From a virus (lineage: Duplodnaviria; Caudoviricetes), in the IMG/VR virus record IMGVR_UViG_3300001525_000178, positions 6,176-70,175 of that record: DNA of 64,000 nucleotides; one strand, 5' to 3'. The position numbers and the translations under genes are program-made. Shown here piece by piece: positions 19,259-60,607 of the stretch. The notes beneath the pieces are model-generated. The model ran no database searches, had not been told where the DNA came from, and was given only the letters and a program-made list of their open reading frames with translations. Positions within the stretch are counted from its first letter, which is position 1, and every line of letters starts with the position of its first letter.

Positions 19259-19670
19259 ATACATAAACTAAATTGTTTTCTAATAGATTCATAATCGCCA
19301 AACTATTTCCTTGAAAAATCTGTGTATCTAATATAAATCTTATATCTTCCTTTTGATTATAAGATTTATACAATTCCAATACACGTTGTTTACATTCTTC
19401 TACATTATCTTGCATAATATCAATTGCATAAACAGATTTTAACGCTGTAATGTAATCTACTTTCTTTTTGCATAAATCAAACTTTCTTTTAAGAATTTCA
19501 ACTACAAACTGACCATTGCCACATGTTGGCTCTAAAAATGTCATCTCGATTGTTATGTCTGGAATTAAATTAAGCATTGCATTTACTTCTCTTTCATTTG
19601 TAAATACTTCGCCCAATTCACGAACTCTATCTTTTGTTTTTATATTAGACCTCAATTTTTGATACCTCAT
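19239..19670 (-). CDS. Short adenine DNA methyltransferase-like protein (SAM-binding half only)
   Basis: LGEVFTNERE, FLEPTCGNGQF, YAIDI, QGNSL; no NPPY/DPPY. Confidence 0.7.
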   Translation of the reverse strand: MRYQKLRSNIKTKDRVRELGEVFTNEREVNAMLNLIPDITIEMTFLEPTCGNGQFVVEILKRKFDLCKKKVDYITALKSVYAIDIMQDNVEECKQRVLELYKSYNQKEDIRFILDTQIFQGNSLAIMNLLENNLVYVFDKNKR

Positions 19671-21075
19671 TTACAATCGCTTGTGTTTCAAGTGCAATTT
19701 GTTTGCTTTCAACCAATCTTCCGTTCTTAAAATCAAGCATTACATCTGGCATTATACCGTATACACCATCTCTTATTTTATCTGCAAACACGATTACTTT
19801 ATTCAAATATTCTGGGTGTTTTTCGATAAATTCTTTGCATTGTTGCGGAAATAAAACGTGCATTACAACGTGGCTATCGTTTAATGTTGCTTTTCCACCA
19901 GCCATATCAAATAATGAACCCCTATTTGCAGTTTTTGGATTTGGTGTAAAACTTTTTAAATATTGATTTAAAACAATAAAAGGTATTCCCATATCTTTTG
20001 CTGTTCTTTTAAATACTGAATAAGTTTTTGAAATGTTTTGATGTTCTTCATTCATTTCATCATTGATTAAAAGTCCAGCATAATCTACAAATACACAAGC
20101 AACACCATACTTTAATTGATATTTTTTAACTGTTGCAATTACTTGCATTACTGTTAAATCTGAACTATCATCAATTACGATTGGAAGTTGATTTAATATT
20201 TCAGTTGCTTTTAAGATTTTGTCTTTGAATTTTTGATAATTTTCTTCATTATCTTCGATTTTTAAATCTTCAAAATATAATCTTGGATTTCTAAAATATT
20301 TGCCATTAATTCCAGAAATGATTGACAAAAAGCGTTCTTCAATTTGTTTTCTTGTCATTTCAAGTGAAAAGCAAACAATCTTTCTATCATCTTTTTTCTT
20401 TTTCAACCATACAGCCATATTTAACATCATAACTTGTGAAAACAAACTTTTGCAATGTCCATTATGTCCACAAAGTGTATAAATATAACCTTCTTTTGCA
20501 CCGTCAATAAACTTGTCAATTGTAGGAAATCCAAACGGAATACCTGTAATCGTATCTGGATTATTGTAACGATAATCGATATCATTTATCAATGCTTTTT
20601 TATCGACATCAATCGGTGAAATGTGATTTGACATTTTAATTTTATCACTTAGACTTATGCCAAGTGAAATAAAATCATCAACAATCTTATCTGGGTCAGA
20701 CATTTCACGTGCATTTTCCATAAAGTCAGAACATAAAGATAATGTTTTTCTTTTAAATGCAGATGATTGAATAATTTTTGTATATTCACGCAATTGTTTT
20801 TTGGTTACAAAAGTTGTATTGTTATATAACTTCTTAACTAAATCTGGCATAATGTCCAAATTTAAAGAACGTGCTTTATTCAGTACGGTTACTTCATCTG
20901 GAATTATATTTTCTTTATATAGTTCAACCAAACATTTGTAAATATTTGCATAATCTCTGTTATAAAAAATGTCTGGATTTAATTTGTCGAATACTTCGAC
21001 AATTTTGTCTGGTTTGTAAAATAAACAAGATATTAGATTTTCTTCTGCTAACTTGTTTGAAATATCAGTAGCCAT
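19645..21075 (-). CDS. dnaB: Replicative DNA helicase
   Basis: N-terminal AEENLISCL, TGIPFGF, Walker A variant GHNGHCKS, FSLEMT, FVDYAGL, LNQ. Confidence 0.9.
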   Translation of the reverse strand: MATDISNKLAEENLISCLFYKPDKIVEVFDKLNPDIFYNRDYANIYKCLVELYKENIIPDEVTVLNKARSLNLDIMPDLVKKLYNNTTFVTKKQLREYTKIIQSSAFKRKTLSLCSDFMENAREMSDPDKIVDDFISLGISLSDKIKMSNHISPIDVDKKALINDIDYRYNNPDTITGIPFGFPTIDKFIDGAKEGYIYTLCGHNGHCKSLFSQVMMLNMAVWLKKKKDDRKIVCFSLEMTRKQIEERFLSIISGINGKYFRNPRLYFEDLKIEDNEENYQKFKDKILKATEILNQLPIVIDDSSDLTVMQVIATVKKYQLKYGVACVFVDYAGLLINDEMNEEHQNISKTYSVFKRTAKDMGIPFIVLNQYLKSFTPNPKTANRGSLFDMAGGKATLNDSHVVMHVLFPQQCKEFIEKHPEYLNKVIVFADKIRDGVYGIMPDVMLDFKNGRLVESKQIALETQAIVNEVSKIEV

Positions 21076-37997: not shown

Positions 37998-38162
37998 TTA
38001 AAATCCTTTAAATCTAAAAATAAAATAAAATGCTTTTATCTTTTCTGTCCATTTGTCCCAAAAGAAAAATCTTGGAAGTTCTTCGTGATGAAATCCTTTT
38101 TCTTTTTTATTTTGATTTGCTTTGTCTGCCATTTCTTGTGGCGTATTTAACTTTATATGCAT
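37998..38162 (-). CDS. Small hypothetical protein (not in the ORF track)
   Basis: Manual: MHIKLNTPQEMADKANQNKKEKGFHHEELPRFFFWDKWTEKIKAFYFIFRFKGF. Confidence 0.35.
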   Translation of the reverse strand: MHIKLNTPQEMADKANQNKKEKGFHHEELPRFFFWDKWTEKIKAFYFIFRFKGF

Positions 38163-38167
38163 GATAT

Positions 38168-38594
38168 TTATGGTTTATTAAAGTTTGTTCCTATTCTTCT
38201 ATACATGCATAGATATACCCTTACACTTACATTAGTTACACCTCGCCCCTTAACTTTAACAAGCAACCTTCTGTTTACATCTACTTGAACAATGTATGTC
38301 ATATTGCTAGTATTCCAGTTAGTACCGTCTCGACCATTATAAAATTCTCCAACACACGTATATGCTTCACCGTCGTCTGGTAATACTAATGATAAATCTA
38401 AAGTATAAGTACTACCCTCTTTTGCAGTAGTCGTCTCAAGTAGTTTATATCTATTTTTCCCCCCCCTCCCAGCCGTATGCGTCAAAATATTTATACGTAC
38501 TTGCTGAAACATTATTGAAATCACGGTCTGCTTTATCATTTAATTGTTCTGACCAAATATTAAGGTCTGTATTTATATCTTTATCTTCTGCCAT
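38168..38594 (-). CDS. Short fibre-tip paralog, frameshifted at a G8 tract (OFF state as assembled)
   Basis: ATG 38594 MAEDKDINTDL...EGGEK-stop; removing one G at 38459-38466 joins YTLDLS.VLPDDG...YRRIGTN, homologous to the C-terminus of 39070-40977. Confidence 0.8.
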
Positions 38595-38596
38595 GT

Positions 38597-39052
38597 TTAT
38601 GTCCTCGCTTGTAATTCATCTTGTGTAATTTCGCCATTTGCAAACTTAAATAGATTATCAAGTTGTTCGCTTGTTACACTTAATTGACTAGCCATTTGGT
38701 CAAGCAATGGGTTCTTTCTTTGCAGTTCAACACATAAATCCCATTCTAATTGTGCTTGTTCGTCTTGTGCAATTAATTCTTTTAAACTTGTATATGAAAC
38801 ACCGAATTGTTGCAACACAAGTGCAAAAACACGCTTTGTACAAGTTAGATTTCCAACACGTTCTGTTTCTCGTTGGATTAATATATTATCCCATTCTGGA
38901 TTTAATACAATTTCACCGTCTTGGTAAATATATTTTTCATATTCATAATCTTCAAATAAATCTTCCTCTACAGGAATGTTAGTAATGTTTAAACACTTTG
39001 CTTGTCCTTTACCAACAATTTCATTATTTTCTACAAAAATATAATAAGACAT
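38597..39052 (-). CDS. Tail fibre assembly/chaperone-like protein
   Basis: Directly downstream of the fibre; RKNPLLDQMASQLSVTSEQLDNLF motif. Confidence 0.6.
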   Translation of the reverse strand: MSYYIFVENNEIVGKGQAKCLNITNIPVEEDLFEDYEYEKYIYQDGEIVLNPEWDNILIQRETERVGNLTCTKRVFALVLQQFGVSYTSLKELIAQDEQAQLEWDLCVELQRKNPLLDQMASQLSVTSEQLDNLFKFANGEITQDELQART

Positions 39053-39069: not shown

Positions 39070-40977
39070 TTATCTATTTGTTCCTAATCGACGATATTTT
39101 GAAAGAAGAATATCACATTTTTGTGGGCTATATGCAGAAATACTAAGATGTAATGTACGATTAGTGTCTACAATAGCACAACCTTCAGCATATCCTTGTT
39201 GAAAATTAGTACCATCAGCGTCAAATCTCATTGTTCTGTAATAAGTAGGATTAGTTGCAGAGGGGTTATATGCTTTGTCATAAAGTAGGCATACTGTGTT
39301 AGTTCCAGAACTATCAGAACGTGCTACAGAACCACATACCCACACCTCATAATCATAACCGTCGTTTGGCAACCAAGTAGACAAATCTAATGTATATTCA
39401 CCAATTGCGGTAAAACTAAAAAACTTAGCAGTTGGAAAAACCCATTGTCCATCAAATCTTTTAGCACCTGTACTTGAGATGTTATTGCAATCGAAATCTA
39501 CCTTTGAATTGAGTTGTTCTGCATTTAATCCAGCAGTTTGTTCAATTGCGTCTTGTGTATAATCGCCTACATAGAAGTATAGATACATTTGACTTGCTCG
39601 TTGTTGTACAGGTGCGTTGTCTTTGTAGGTTGATGACGATTTGTTAGCCGAAAAAGAAACTTTTTTATATCGATTATTTTCGCCACTAGAGGGGCTATTA
39701 GAAACAGTTGATAAAGAAAAAGCCCCAGACGCAGTACTTGAAGAAGGTCCGCAATGTACGGTTGAAATACTACCAGTAATATTCGGTAAACTTTCAGTTA
39801 CATATCCGCCAACAGTATCACGCAAGCCTACAAAACCATATTTTGTTCTTGGCAATTTAAAACGTGTATTTGCCGTGTCTAAAACATAATACCAAGCAAC
39901 GCCTGTATTTGTATATTGTTGCAACGCATATTGTTCTTGGTCTGCGTCTAAAATGATAAAACCATTGCTTGATGTATGTGCAAACGTACCATTCCACACA
40001 GTACCAATTGAACAATTTGGAATATTAAATGTACCCAAGAATGGATATGTGCTACCAGTATTTAAACCAAATCGAACAGCTTGCGAACCACCATTTGCTA
40101 ATGTTGTGCTTGCGATTGTAATTTCAGTTGTTGTAGTTGCACTTTCGTCACTCAAATTTGTTAATTCAAGCGTATAGTTTGTTCCATCGTAATCTAAAAT
40201 TAATTTATAATTTGTGCTTGGTGTTAAAACGGTTGTACCAACAACTGTACCGTCTGCGATATCGTTCGCTGTACCGTTTGATGATAAATGTAAAGTTAAT
40301 TTACTATCTGTATTAATACCAATATTTACGCAATAGTTTGTACCAACAACTTGTTGTTGTGTTGTTACATCTGAACCTGTTGTAAAATCAAATACCATTG
40401 GAAACATTGTTTCTTTTGTAGTACCAATATTTACAGTCTTTGATATATAATTTGAAGTAGAAAAACCGCTTGCAATACCTTTATCTGATACAGCAATTGT
40501 TCCTTGTTTATCTGCATTAATTGTAACTTTTGCGTTTACATCATTCCATTCGCTAAGAATTTTATTATAAGAAGATGTATAAACTTCACCACTTTGCCAA
40601 GAAAAAGTATCTGCACGTAAAAAACGAACATCATTCAATTTATGGTCATACCAATTAAACGATAATAAAGGTGGTGCATAAGCTGAACGCCAAGTAGCGT
40701 CTGTACCGTCTGAATATAGATATTTTCCAGCTTGCCCTGTTTGTGCGGGCAACGATGAAACGTCACCCCAAGAAGGATTTTGTCCGTCGGTTGTTAAGAA
40801 TTGTCCAGAATGTCCTGTTTGTGAAGGTAAATTTGAAGGTACTATTTCAGCTACATATTCAGCCATTTGTTCCATTGTAACTTTTTTATCTATATCACTA
40901 TCAGAAACGTCTGTCATGATTAAAATATCATCTGGTGACAATTCTGTTGCTTGTTTTTTATCGTTAAATCTAACCAT
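39070..40977 (-). CDS. Long tail fibre protein
   Basis: LPSQTGHSGQFLTTDG repeats, beta-sandwich middle, ESLPNITG, variable C-terminal tip. Confidence 0.85.
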   Translation of the reverse strand: MVRFNDKKQATELSPDDILIMTDVSDSDIDKKVTMEQMAEYVAEIVPSNLPSQTGHSGQFLTTDGQNPSWGDVSSLPAQTGQAGKYLYSDGTDATWRSAYAPPLLSFNWYDHKLNDVRFLRADTFSWQSGEVYTSSYNKILSEWNDVNAKVTINADKQGTIAVSDKGIASGFSTSNYISKTVNIGTTKETMFPMVFDFTTGSDVTTQQQVVGTNYCVNIGINTDSKLTLHLSSNGTANDIADGTVVGTTVLTPSTNYKLILDYDGTNYTLELTNLSDESATTTTEITIASTTLANGGSQAVRFGLNTGSTYPFLGTFNIPNCSIGTVWNGTFAHTSSNGFIILDADQEQYALQQYTNTGVAWYYVLDTANTRFKLPRTKYGFVGLRDTVGGYVTESLPNITGSISTVHCGPSSSTASGAFSLSTVSNSPSSGENNRYKKVSFSANKSSSTYKDNAPVQQRASQMYLYFYVGDYTQDAIEQTAGLNAEQLNSKVDFDCNNISSTGAKRFDGQWVFPTAKFFSFTAIGEYTLDLSTWLPNDGYDYEVWVCGSVARSDSSGTNTVCLLYDKAYNPSATNPTYYRTMRFDADGTNFQQGYAEGCAIVDTNRTLHLSISAYSPQKCDILLSKYRRLGTNR

Positions 40978-42149
40978 TATAAAAATCTAACTCCACTATT
41001 TGTTCCGACAGTATATTCTTGCAATCTGTCGTATACGATTTGTTGATTTGTTGTATTATCTGTAATTAAAAGGTCGTACATTGCACCGCTATTGTAGAAT
41101 GAAGCGCCAGCATTTCCTAGAAAGATTTTATTTCCAGAACTAAATTCTACTTCGCTATCAACGGTTTGTTGTGCAACCAATAAACCATTTACGTATAAAG
41201 ACCAAGTATTGCCTGTTTTATCTACAACAACTTGATTTCTTTCGTTATAATGAACAGCGTTATTACCCTTTAACAAAAGACTGTAATCACCGTCAACATA
41301 ATCATCTTCTAGTTCATCTGTATAAAAATTTACAAGTGTTTCATCTGAATATCGGCTTGGCGTAGTTTTTACATAAACACCGTCATCTTTGTTATATTTT
41401 ATAACCAAATCAGCCACATATTCGTTTCCAAACATTGGCGCAATGCCCAATAAACCCGTATCAACAGTTGAAGGCATTGTATCTGGAACAAATGAAAAAC
41501 TTATTCTAAAATCATGACTTCCGTCAATTTCTTTATTATATTGAATAAAAGCGTCGTTCTTGAAAATATTATATAAAGTATGGCAGTAGGCATGATTGAT
41601 TGATACACCAACAGGCATAATTGATTTTATAATCTCAACTGCATTTTTAAATGTAATTGGATTTCTACCATACATGTGAATTTCGTCAATTCCAGCTGGA
41701 TAATCTTCTGAAATTCTTACCAAACTTACGTTAAATAAAAGTTTGATTGCCCTTTTTAATTCGGCAAAACTTGCGTTTGTATAGTTTTGAATGATTTTTG
41801 AACGAATTGCACTTCTATATGCTTCGGTATTTAATGTACCAATACTATATGTACCAAATTGACCAGCGCCAAAACCTTCATCAGTTGTACCGCCAAAAGT
41901 AAAAGCACCAGAAACCAATTTAGCATATTCATATTCTTTTGATTGTCCTACTTTTCTTCCAAGATAATCCAACCACACGCCGTCTGCATAACCAATATCT
42001 AAAGCCCATAGCAATTGCCATAAAACATCTTCAATATATTGATATCTTTTGCCAGAATATTGTGATAAATTATATATATCTGGAATGTTAAGTAAATAAG
42101 GAATGACAACCGAATTTGCTAATTCGTTATGATTTCTTATCTGTAACAT
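40977..42149 (-). CDS. Baseplate wedge protein (DUF2612-like)
   Basis: ADGVWLDYLGRKVG, FTFGG, YRSAIRSKIIQNY. Confidence 0.75.
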   Translation of the reverse strand: MLQIRNHNELANSVVIPYLLNIPDIYNLSQYSGKRYQYIEDVLWQLLWALDIGYADGVWLDYLGRKVGQSKEYEYAKLVSGAFTFGGTTDEGFGAGQFGTYSIGTLNTEAYRSAIRSKIIQNYTNASFAELKRAIKLLFNVSLVRISEDYPAGIDEIHMYGRNPITFKNAVEIIKSIMPVGVSINHAYCHTLYNIFKNDAFIQYNKEIDGSHDFRISFSFVPDTMPSTVDTGLLGIAPMFGNEYVADLVIKYNKDDGVYVKTTPSRYSDETLVNFYTDELEDDYVDGDYSLLLKGNNAVHYNERNQVVVDKTGNTWSLYVNGLLVAQQTVDSEVEFSSGNKIFLGNAGASFYNSGAMYDLLITDNTTNQQIVYDRLQEYTVGTNSGVRFL

Positions 42150-58164: not shown

Positions 58165-58905
58165 CTAATATTTATCGCCAATCAAATCTAAAATTATCAA
58201 AGCAAATTCTTTATGCTCTTTTCCACCGTTTTTGATATAATTATTTAAGAAACTACATACCCTTCTAGATTTTATTCTTGAAGATATTTTTGCTTCTTCA
58301 ATTTCATCTTTGGGTGGTTCAAGATTTAAACTTAAATAACTTTTATTTATTTCGTCCTGTGTAATTCCAATATATCTTTTTGTAACTTCTGGCGTATAAT
58401 GGTTATATATTGTTTGTAATAAGGTAATATCTTTAAACTGTCTATAATGATGATAGCCGAATGTTTTTCTCATTGTATGTGTTCCAACATTCGCTTTAAT
58501 TTCTAGCGCCTTACAGGCTGTTACAATCGCCTTATATACAACAATTCTATCAAGTGGTTTATTATCTTTTCCTTTAAATAAATATTCGTCTTCATTTCTA
58601 TCTTTACAAAAATCATTCAAAAGTTGTTGCAATGAAGTTTTTATTGGAAAAGATTTTGCTTTATTTGTTTTTATTTCACGTAAAACAATTTGCTCTTTAT
58701 TTAAAACATCTTTTACTTTAAAGTTTAACAAATCCGATATGCGTAAACCGCTGTTTACACCAAATTCAAACAAAACAGCATATTTATTTTTATTGTGTTC
58801 GTTTAAATAATCAATTATACGTCTTATATCGTTTTTATCACGTATAGGTTCGACTACTTGTGTGTTTCTTCTTTTTGACTGAACTGTTAATTTTGCTTTC
58901 TTCAT
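58165..58905 (-). CDS. Tyrosine recombinase (XerC-like catalytic domain), probable shufflon invertase
   Basis: GLRISD (R), HTMRKTFGY (HxxR), YNH, KRYIG (Y). Confidence 0.92.
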   Translation of the reverse strand: MKKAKLTVQSKRRNTQVVEPIRDKNDIRRIIDYLNEHNKNKYAVLFEFGVNSGLRISDLLNFKVKDVLNKEQIVLREIKTNKAKSFPIKTSLQQLLNDFCKDRNEDEYLFKGKDNKPLDRIVVYKAIVTACKALEIKANVGTHTMRKTFGYHHYRQFKDITLLQTIYNHYTPEVTKRYIGITQDEINKSYLSLNLEPPKDEIEEAKISSRIKSRRVCSFLNNYIKNGGKEHKEFALIILDLIGDKY

Positions 58906-60007: not shown

Positions 60008-60232
60008 ATGCCAATAGTAAACCAAAAACATTCAGTATGTTCATTTTTTCTTGAGATGTATTTCTGACTGTAATGTAAAAATAGGAAAGAGTTTTGTTGT
60101 ATGTAGATATATAAAAAGAGGAGTTCTCATTTCTAAACAACGATACTTGAGGAGAATAAAATTTAGGATAGGTAACAGGGAGTGAAACCTGCGTAAAACT
60201 TGAAGATTTCCCCCATTGCAACAAACTTGCTA
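60004..60232 (-). other. Inverted fibre-tip cassette 5 with head site TAGCAAG; 1-nt frameshift in an A6 run
   Basis: ASLLQWGK...LPVTY...; adding one A at 60044-60049 restores ...ECFWFTIGI*. Confidence 0.8.
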
Positions 60233-60607
60233 GTAAAATATGTTGACTGTCTATCAATTACACCAAATATATAAACGTTCGTTGCAGTTGGTCGAACATC
60301 TGTCAAGGTAATACTATATTGTTGTGACGAGAATGGTTTTAGTAATTCTATATTTTCTGTACTAATACTCGTTGAACCTTTATCGTATAAACCACCTTGT
60401 TCACACCAACCATCAGACCAAAGACGATACCATTGTGTACCATCTTCTGATTTACCTGTTTCAACTACGGTAGTGACATTATTTAATCTTACCCCCCCCT
60501 GTGTGGGCTGGGTCGGTATTATAAGCATTTCTATCCATTTTGTCGTTTAATGCTTCTGACCAAACGTCTAAATCTGTGTTAATATTTACATATTTATCTT
60601 CTGCCAT
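60163..60607 (-). CDS. Short fibre-tip gene (gp53-like domain), frameshifted at a G8 tract, abutting the cassette array
   Basis: ATG 60607 MAEDKYVNINTDL...HTGGGKIK-stop; removing one G at 60492-60499 joins VVETG...WYRLWSDGWCEQGG. Confidence 0.8.

Follow-up and report, generated by a model that had tools for sequence, protein, structure and literature searches.

A G8 tract interrupts a small tail-fibre tip gene of an uncultured gut phage and marks a candidate contingency locus

A small gene in the tail-fibre module of an uncultured gut phage is cut short by a run of eight Gs, which raises the question of whether the interruption is a selected switch or a random error. The source record is a linear IMG/VR sequence of 70,175 bp (~65% complete, 31% GC), and its large terminase is at most 26% identical to that of any GenBank phage. 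The window, i.e., the whole 64,000-nucleotide stretch analysed here, corresponds to bases 6176 to 70175 of this record, and the minus strand carries all of its genes. Bins holding relatives of the main tail fibre are labelled Alphaproteobacteria/Ca. Enterousia, Elusimicrobia, Clostridia, and others. According to the Pfam and PHROGs matches of its neighbours, the interrupted gene sits within a tail-fibre module (Table 1). The DUF2977-type protein encoded immediately upstream is probably a fibre-tip assembly chaperone that accompanies the YRR(L/I)GTN tip family; in L009, a contig with a homologous small tip gene, a 145-aa homologue of this protein comes after the tip gene. Directly after the small tip gene of the window lies a 54-aa ORF (37998 to 38162), and at this place relatives have a chaperone-like gene of ~120 to 145 aa, of which the ORF may be a remnant.

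Table 1. Features of the tail-fibre module around the interrupted gene and of its 60-kb paralogue (window coordinates)
Feature	Position	Strand	Basis or remark
DUF2612 baseplate wedge	40977-42149	-	Pfam/PHROGs
Main tail fibre, 635 aa	39070-40977	-	Junction (..AEQLNSKVDFDCNN..) and C-terminal tip paralogous to P0001
DUF2977-type protein, 151 aa	38597-39052	-	Pfam PF11192, phrog_300
Shine-Dalgarno-like GAGGA	38602-38606	-	8 nt upstream of ATG 38594; direct sequence reading
Interrupted small tip gene	38168-38594	-	Follows the main fibre and the 151-aa gene in module order
47-aa ORF as assembled (OFF state)	38451-38594	-	N-terminal neck module (..WSEQLNDKADRDFNN..) and family motif FDxxGW
G8 tract (C8 on the plus strand)	38459-38466	-	Codes for an E-G-G linker right after the invariant Trp
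Downstream frame, 96 codons and stop	38168-38458	-	Tip domain (YTLDLSLVLPDDG...YRRIGTN), predicted beta-sandwich
309-aa fibre-like protein, DUF1353 chaperone-like protein, and tail-collar fibre, downstream of the small gene		-	Pfam/PHROGs
N-module ORF of the second small tip gene, 42 aa	60479-60607	-	Paralogue of the 38-kb N-module
Second G8 tract	60492-60499	-	G7 joins a gp53-like WYRLWSDGWCEQGG domain (60163-60491)

The small gene starts 2 nt past the stop codon of the gene for the 151-aa protein, and in the assembly it encodes a 47-aa product, MAEDKDINTDLNIWSEQLNDKADRDFNNVSASTYKYFDAYGWEGGEK-stop, that terminates two codons beyond the tract. On re-reading, the coordinates and the peptide that an earlier note had given for this ORF were correct, and its claim that exactly one G fewer would join the downstream frame was borne out as well, the product being a single protein of 141 aa (P0001) that ends in ...YRRIGTNFNKP. 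By base counting, tract lengths of G7 and G10 are in frame and G8 and G9 are out of frame. Tract length hence sets whether the full-length protein is encoded, G8 yielding 47 aa and G7 yielding 141 aa with all family-invariant residues. The 96-codon frame that follows the tract is not a random ORF, because, of the open stretches found on the opposite, non-coding strand, a mere 1% reach this length without a stop. Tip-only expression from an ATG at position 38539 was also considered and was rejected, since this codon has no Shine-Dalgarno sequence and falls within the LNDK codons.

The tract is an outlier in the composition of the genome. The earlier note had seen only two C8/G8 runs in the AT-rich 64 kb and had suggested a census of homopolymers, which confirmed this count and extended it to all 70,175 bp of the record: apart from the two G8 runs, no G/C run exceeds 5, and in both G8 runs the Gs are on the coding strand. 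Under a first-order Markov model of the window, 0.06 G/C runs of 8 or more are expected (Poisson P of two or more, 0.002). Runs of 6 or 7 Gs or Cs are absent from both the window and the record, with about two runs of at least 6 expected under the model. The homopolymer inside the 38-kb gene is thus far above compositional expectation. A/T runs of 7 to 9, including a T9, lie within intact long ORFs in 19 of 21 cases, and general homopolymer miscalling in the assembly is therefore unlikely. Systematic miscalling by the sequencing platform, which the note had named as a way for its reading to fail, can in this general form be set aside as unlikely, and a miscall specific to the tracts keeps a low weight (see below).

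With one G removed, the gene product resembles the tip of the adjacent main fibre, in agreement with the note: residues 15 to 137 of P0001 align, across the tract, with residues 486 to 634 of the 635-aa fibre (30% identity, E = 2e-9). The interrupted region is most likely a single gene, and its product a small accessory protein of the tail fibre with ~141 aa. P0001 begins with an N-terminal "neck" of ~30 aa, whose homologue in the main fibre is the shaft/tip junction; a Gly-Gly linker then leads into a tip domain of ~95 aa, which is paralogous to the main-fibre tip and predicted to form a beta-sandwich. Recent gene conversion with the main fibre was rejected, as the junction DNAs are only ~70% alike and share no long identical stretch. 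A tip-family profile made from P0001, the main-fibre tip, and a few relatives matched 1,236 cluster representatives at a cutoff of E ≤ 1e-3. The tip domain occurs at the C terminus of long fibres, in tandem arrays of two to three copies, and in standalone proteins of 145 to 165 aa, many of which match the profile over its full length. The family signature consists of (I/L)SEALNxKxDxDxxN, FDGxW, YxLDLSxYLPxDG, and a C-terminal YRRxGTN in a protein of ~145 to 165 aa. The analysis defines a large unannotated family of standalone neck-plus-tip proteins encoded beside main fibre genes. Many of the profile matches (P0125, P0126, and P0128 among them) are proteins of ~300 or ~450 aa made up of two or three tandem YRRLGTN tip domains, an architecture that is absent from the Pfam and PHROGs descriptions.

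In an alignment with twelve standalone members of the tip family, P0001 retains all eight invariant residues, three of them before the tract (M1, D38, and W42) and five after it (L71, P72, D74, Y78, and Y131), together with the near-invariant N28, G39, R108, R132, and G135. Its mid-domain is ~30 residues shorter than that of the standalone relatives, and this gap explains why P0001 has only 141 aa. Judged by its residues, P0001 can be counted as a member of the standalone neck-plus-tip family YRR(L/I)GTN. AlphaFold (AF2) modelled residues 42 to 138 as a beta-sandwich (pLDDT 70 to 82, pTM 0.60) and left the N-module disordered in the monomer. In structure alignment, the model came closest to the tip domain at the C terminus of the Bdellovibrio Bd2133 fibre, with a Z score of 6.7 (rmsd 2.9 over 84 residues) that is below the value of 8 taken to prove a fold, as is the Z score of 4.8 for the T7 gp17 tip. 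Foldseek searches of PDB and BFVD with the model gave no match at E ≤ 0.001, and neither Pfam nor PHROGs matched P0001. The model is compatible with a fibre tip and falls short of proving one.

Close relatives of the 38-kb locus were sought in several ways. A word-indexed protein search returned no P0001 homologue of 77 to 247 aa, and tblastn of P0001 against GenBank phages gave no homologue. Scans of IMG/VR and JGI metagenomes with P0001 peptides found no relative; nor did anything emerge from IMG/VR scans with the N-module alignment, and scans of the same database with the neighbouring baseplate gene and the portal gene produced no relative of the locus. Exact look-ups of the flanking 151-aa and 309-aa proteins returned nothing, megablast of 4 kb around the locus matched no GenBank phage, and the flanks of the 38-kb tract, combined with any tract length, had no match in IMG/VR. 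One relative, L008, is clearly syntenic, and its contig stops immediately beyond the chaperone gene and does not reach the small gene.

The main fibre has many relatives, and in at least eight gut-MAG loci it is directly followed by a small gene and then by a chaperone-like gene. The N termini of these small genes (...(I/L)SEALNDKxDxDxxN...) are homologous to the fibre junction, and their tips are paralogous to the main-fibre tip. At least seven are complete and intact and encode 130 to 137 aa (L153, L156, L157, L160, L161, L164, and L171); in L172, the contig ends inside the gene. L006 and L007 likewise have an intact small gene, of 161 and 170 aa, respectively. Since intact copies lie beside the main fibres of relatives, the small neck-plus-tip gene is a real and usually intact class, and the length and architecture of P0001 suit this class (130 to 165 aa). 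In two contigs, L009 (2889 to 3382) and L010 (2885 to 3378), which are independent assemblies, the reading frame of a homologous small tip gene (MAEINVGEISEALNNKSD...YRRLGKTN) breaks at an A7; with an A8 the two parts would be joined, and an intact relative of 164 aa exists (P0136).

In nine homologous small genes, the longest G run is at most 5, and the tract was accordingly rejected as a conserved feature of the family; on this comparison, the 38-kb tract is a lineage-specific acquisition. The earlier note had looked to conservation of the tracts in related phages, which holds in one homologue, where a tract is found at the same linker, and fails in most. This homologue, L012 (IMG/VR UViG_3300028048_000681, 40% GC), was the one further case returned when IMG/VR was searched for LNDK followed by G8 or more. 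Its small gene is intact and encodes 132 aa (...ILESLNDKTDRDLGNLSAEGRVAGGGLAFPSDN...), three glycines being provided by an in-frame G9. An IMG/VR scan with the L012 flanks and any tract length found only L012 itself. L091, a contig assembled from another metagenome, shares 1318 of 1319 positions with L012; the single exception is the tract, where L091 has G8 instead of G9 and its small gene is thereby frameshifted. The samples concerned are Ga0256405 and Ga0310695. Such a G9/G8 difference is the signature expected of a hypermutable tract, with an assembly error as the possible alternative. At the linker, relatives that lack a tract read SGLG, SGQG, or SGVA, so the tract has its origin in an ordinary Gly-rich linker.

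The second G8 of the record interrupts a paralogous small gene at 60 kb. The N-modules of the two genes share 59% identity overall and are nearly identical over their first 24 residues. The note had placed both tracts at the equivalent position of homologous genes. This stands insofar as both lie within the linker that joins the shared N-module to the tip domain, after residue 43 in the 38-kb gene and after residue 36 in the 60-kb gene; it does not stand at the DNA level, because no alignment of the two sequences extends across the tracts. This is in keeping with the linker having gained its tract, or having been remodelled, independently in the two genes. The tip that G7 would restore at 60 kb is of the gp53-like type. 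In P0003, the fibre of a relative that is 54% identical to the main fibre, a gp53-like tip (WYRIYDDGWCEQGG) follows the junction ...GLNAELFNEKVD, and P0003 and the main fibre have the same conserved junction, ...GLNAE(L/Q)xNxKVD.... Tips are thus exchanged at this junction and pass between main fibres and small genes. Within the window, the gp53-like tip type is found only in the 60-kb small gene. This gene has a further frame problem at its junction with a cassette system located at 58.2 to 60.3 kb. Here, a tyrosine recombinase gene (58165 to 58905, PF00589) lies beside four plus-strand tip cassettes, each beginning at a ~26-nt repeat (58989, 59237, 59486, and 59758) and ending in ...(A/I)GY-stop. 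An inverted copy of the repeat is present in the minus-strand gene (approximately 60205 to 60237), and the cassette frame (LASLLQWG...) is one base off the frame of the upstream gp53-like domain.

On balance, we consider it fairly probable that the 38-kb gene is a contingency locus in which strand slippage controls whether an accessory receptor-binding tip is made. As the phage DNA is replicated, slipped-strand mispairing would add or remove Gs at the hypermutable linker tract. With G7 or G10, the full protein would be made (ON), and with G8, the state of the assembly, or G9, translation would stop soon after the neck module (OFF), so that the phage population would contain sub-populations with and without the extra receptor-binding tip. 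The 60-kb gene would provide a second, independent switch of the same build, and with both, the phage would be hedging its bets on host range or on escaping variation in the receptor. In this proposal, we infer the switching at the 38-kb locus, the incorporation of the protein into the virion, its binding to a receptor, and the fitness benefit. The preference of the earlier note for a selected switch over random error gains support from the outlier status of the tracts, the harmlessness of the other homopolymers, the restoration of the invariant residues, the G9/G8 pair of L012 and L091, and the lack of RNA structure downstream of the tract. A wider scheme, which we put forward tentatively and hold to be doubtful as a whole, is a combinatorial host-range device in which two independent poly-G switches each gate a small accessory tip that shares its docking neck with the main fibre, one switch being coupled to a recombinase-driven library of tip cassettes. 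A single genome could then give rise to virions that differ in their receptor-binding outfits, and unrelated gut phages would have gained the tract repeatedly, each time at this Gly-rich linker.

Some observations speak against a switch, i.e., both G8 genes are OFF, the tip of P0001 is shortened, most homologues have no tract, and the 60-kb paralogue has its extra frame problem. Both genes being OFF, the tip being ~30 aa shorter than in relatives, and the 60-kb paralogue being additionally out of frame with its cassettes would also suit a decaying pseudogene, in which a dispensable accessory tip gene was knocked out by slippage and is heading for loss, the tract being a mutational hot spot without selected switching. 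The L009/L010 homologue points the same way, since it is frameshifted at an ordinary A7 in two assemblies and small tip genes may therefore be simply dispensable and decaying. We nevertheless find this explanation unlikely. A G8 would have to form and persist in a genome of 31% GC, where a small fraction of one such run is expected, and decay leaves unexplained why G8 occurs only in these two paralogues and why another phage has a tract in a third gene at this linker. Moreover, the downstream frame of 96 codons is still open and all invariant residues have been kept, and a one-base change in the tract is inherently reversible, an intact G9 allele being known for the L012 homologue.

If, instead, both tracts were miscalled by one base, the true length would be G7 (or G10) and the gene would be intact. 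G homopolymers are error-prone on several platforms, the two tracts are off by the same single base, and the record is a metagenome assembly known from assembled sequence alone; the intact ORFs around nearly all long A/T runs make such an error quite unlikely, and even if it had occurred, the paralogous fibre-tip genes would still each have an exceptional G tract, which would mark contingency loci all the same. A functional G8 allele that is expressed by programmed recoding, through +1 ribosomal slippage on GGG_G or RNA-polymerase stuttering, would yield short and long products in a fixed ratio. GGG GGG G does permit perfect re-pairing of tRNA-Gly in the +1 frame, the same +1 shift is needed by both paralogues, and long homopolymers are known sites of transcriptional slippage. 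We regard recoding as very unlikely, because the stimulatory elements are missing: the RNA downstream of the 38-kb tract folds no better than shuffled sequence (z = -0.02), there is no adjacent stop or rare codon, and the first codon past the G8 run is an ordinary GAA. In addition, the tract of the L012 homologue is in frame (G9), so that recoding is unneeded there, and most members of the family have no tract.

The proposed contingency locus can be compared with several known systems. Bacterial contingency loci include poly-G tracts in surface genes of Campylobacter, Helicobacter, Neisseria, and Haemophilus, where G/C runs of ~8 to 10 make expression dependent on frame. The intragenic G/C homopolymer of about this length and the frame-dependent expression are shared with the phage gene, whereas the latter is borne by a virus and would act on the virus's own putative adhesin rather than on a bacterial surface structure. 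Tail-fibre tips are also varied at the DNA level by invertible systems, such as Mu Gin, P1 Cin, and the Rin-type tyrosine-recombinase shufflons of prophages. A cassette system adjoins the 60-kb sister locus; the 38-kb gene, in contrast, has neither a recombinase site nor cassettes, and its switch would be tract length and not inversion.

Among phages, the closest parallel comes from the Campylobacter Fletchervirus phages, in which hypermutable poly-G tracts lead to phase-variable expression of receptor-binding proteins (RBPs) (Sorensen 2021, Cell Rep 35:109214, as cited in PMC10579305 and PMC12823448). The two cases have in common a long G run inside a tail-fibre or RBP-type gene of an AT-rich phage, a tract length that sets the frame and thereby ON and OFF sub-populations, and a proposed benefit in diversity of host recognition. 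The present phage differs in being uncultured and, by its terminase, unrelated, and its gene is a small standalone neck-plus-tip paralogue of the main fibre and not the main RBP. In the present phage, switching and any consequence for host range are proposed from assembled sequence, and one of the two proposed switches adjoins a recombinase cassette system. In phages T2 and T4, simple-sequence repeats in coding regions undergo reversible frameshifts by polymerase slippage, which has been read as bet-hedging, and repeats are under-represented in coliphage tail-fibre genes (Gomez, Barrick and Waters 2025, bioRxiv 10.1101/2025.10.21.683753). A simple-sequence repeat in a phage coding region and, as proposed here, frameshifting by slippage are shared features. 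In T2/T4, the repeats are for the most part short and of A/T type (6 or more), with agt and rIIA among the genes that contain them, whereas the present tract is a strong compositional outlier in fibre-tip genes.

In the literature cited above, poly-G phase variation of phage receptor-binding genes has been shown experimentally so far only in Campylobacter phages. If our reading is true, gut phages that are uncultured and unrelated to those of Campylobacter would use the same device, in one genome twice, and its site would be a defined linker in small accessory tips that form a widespread family. "Frameshifted" fibre genes in metagenomes should then not be dismissed as errors or pseudogenes, and host-range predictions from a single consensus genome could miss sub-populations.

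Poly-G tracts were also encountered elsewhere in the course of these searches. A broader pattern, LNDKxD combined with G8, added only L146 in IMG/VR, a chance match in which an in-frame G8 (MKGGAGMY; 956 to 963) lies in a DNA methyltransferase gene of a contig with 50% GC. In L007, a contig of a related phage, ~10 nt lie between a C10 run (20268 to 20277) and the start of a downstream N6_N4 DNA methyltransferase gene (19652 to 20257, minus strand); the run may belong to a phase-variable methylase promoter or 5′ region. An in-frame G12 (GGGG) in L006 (13593 to 13604) and a GAG+G9 in L007 (13427 to 13436) are both inside the gene for a 167-aa chaperone-like protein of the fibre module, just upstream of an intact neck-plus-tip gene, and there the two contigs differ by G-to-A and not by length. 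Finally, intergenic runs of G10, G12, G12, and G11 were found in L015 (6191 to 6274), L017 (13601 to 13686), L018 (2361 to 2446), and L019 (5874 to 5958), respectively, which are related IMG/VR phages of 26 to 30% GC. In each, ~100 nt separate the run from a downstream gene for a small gp53-like tip (MAKEFITEDD...); the length of the run varies among otherwise similar contigs, and these runs possibly represent a poly-G switch at the promoter level.
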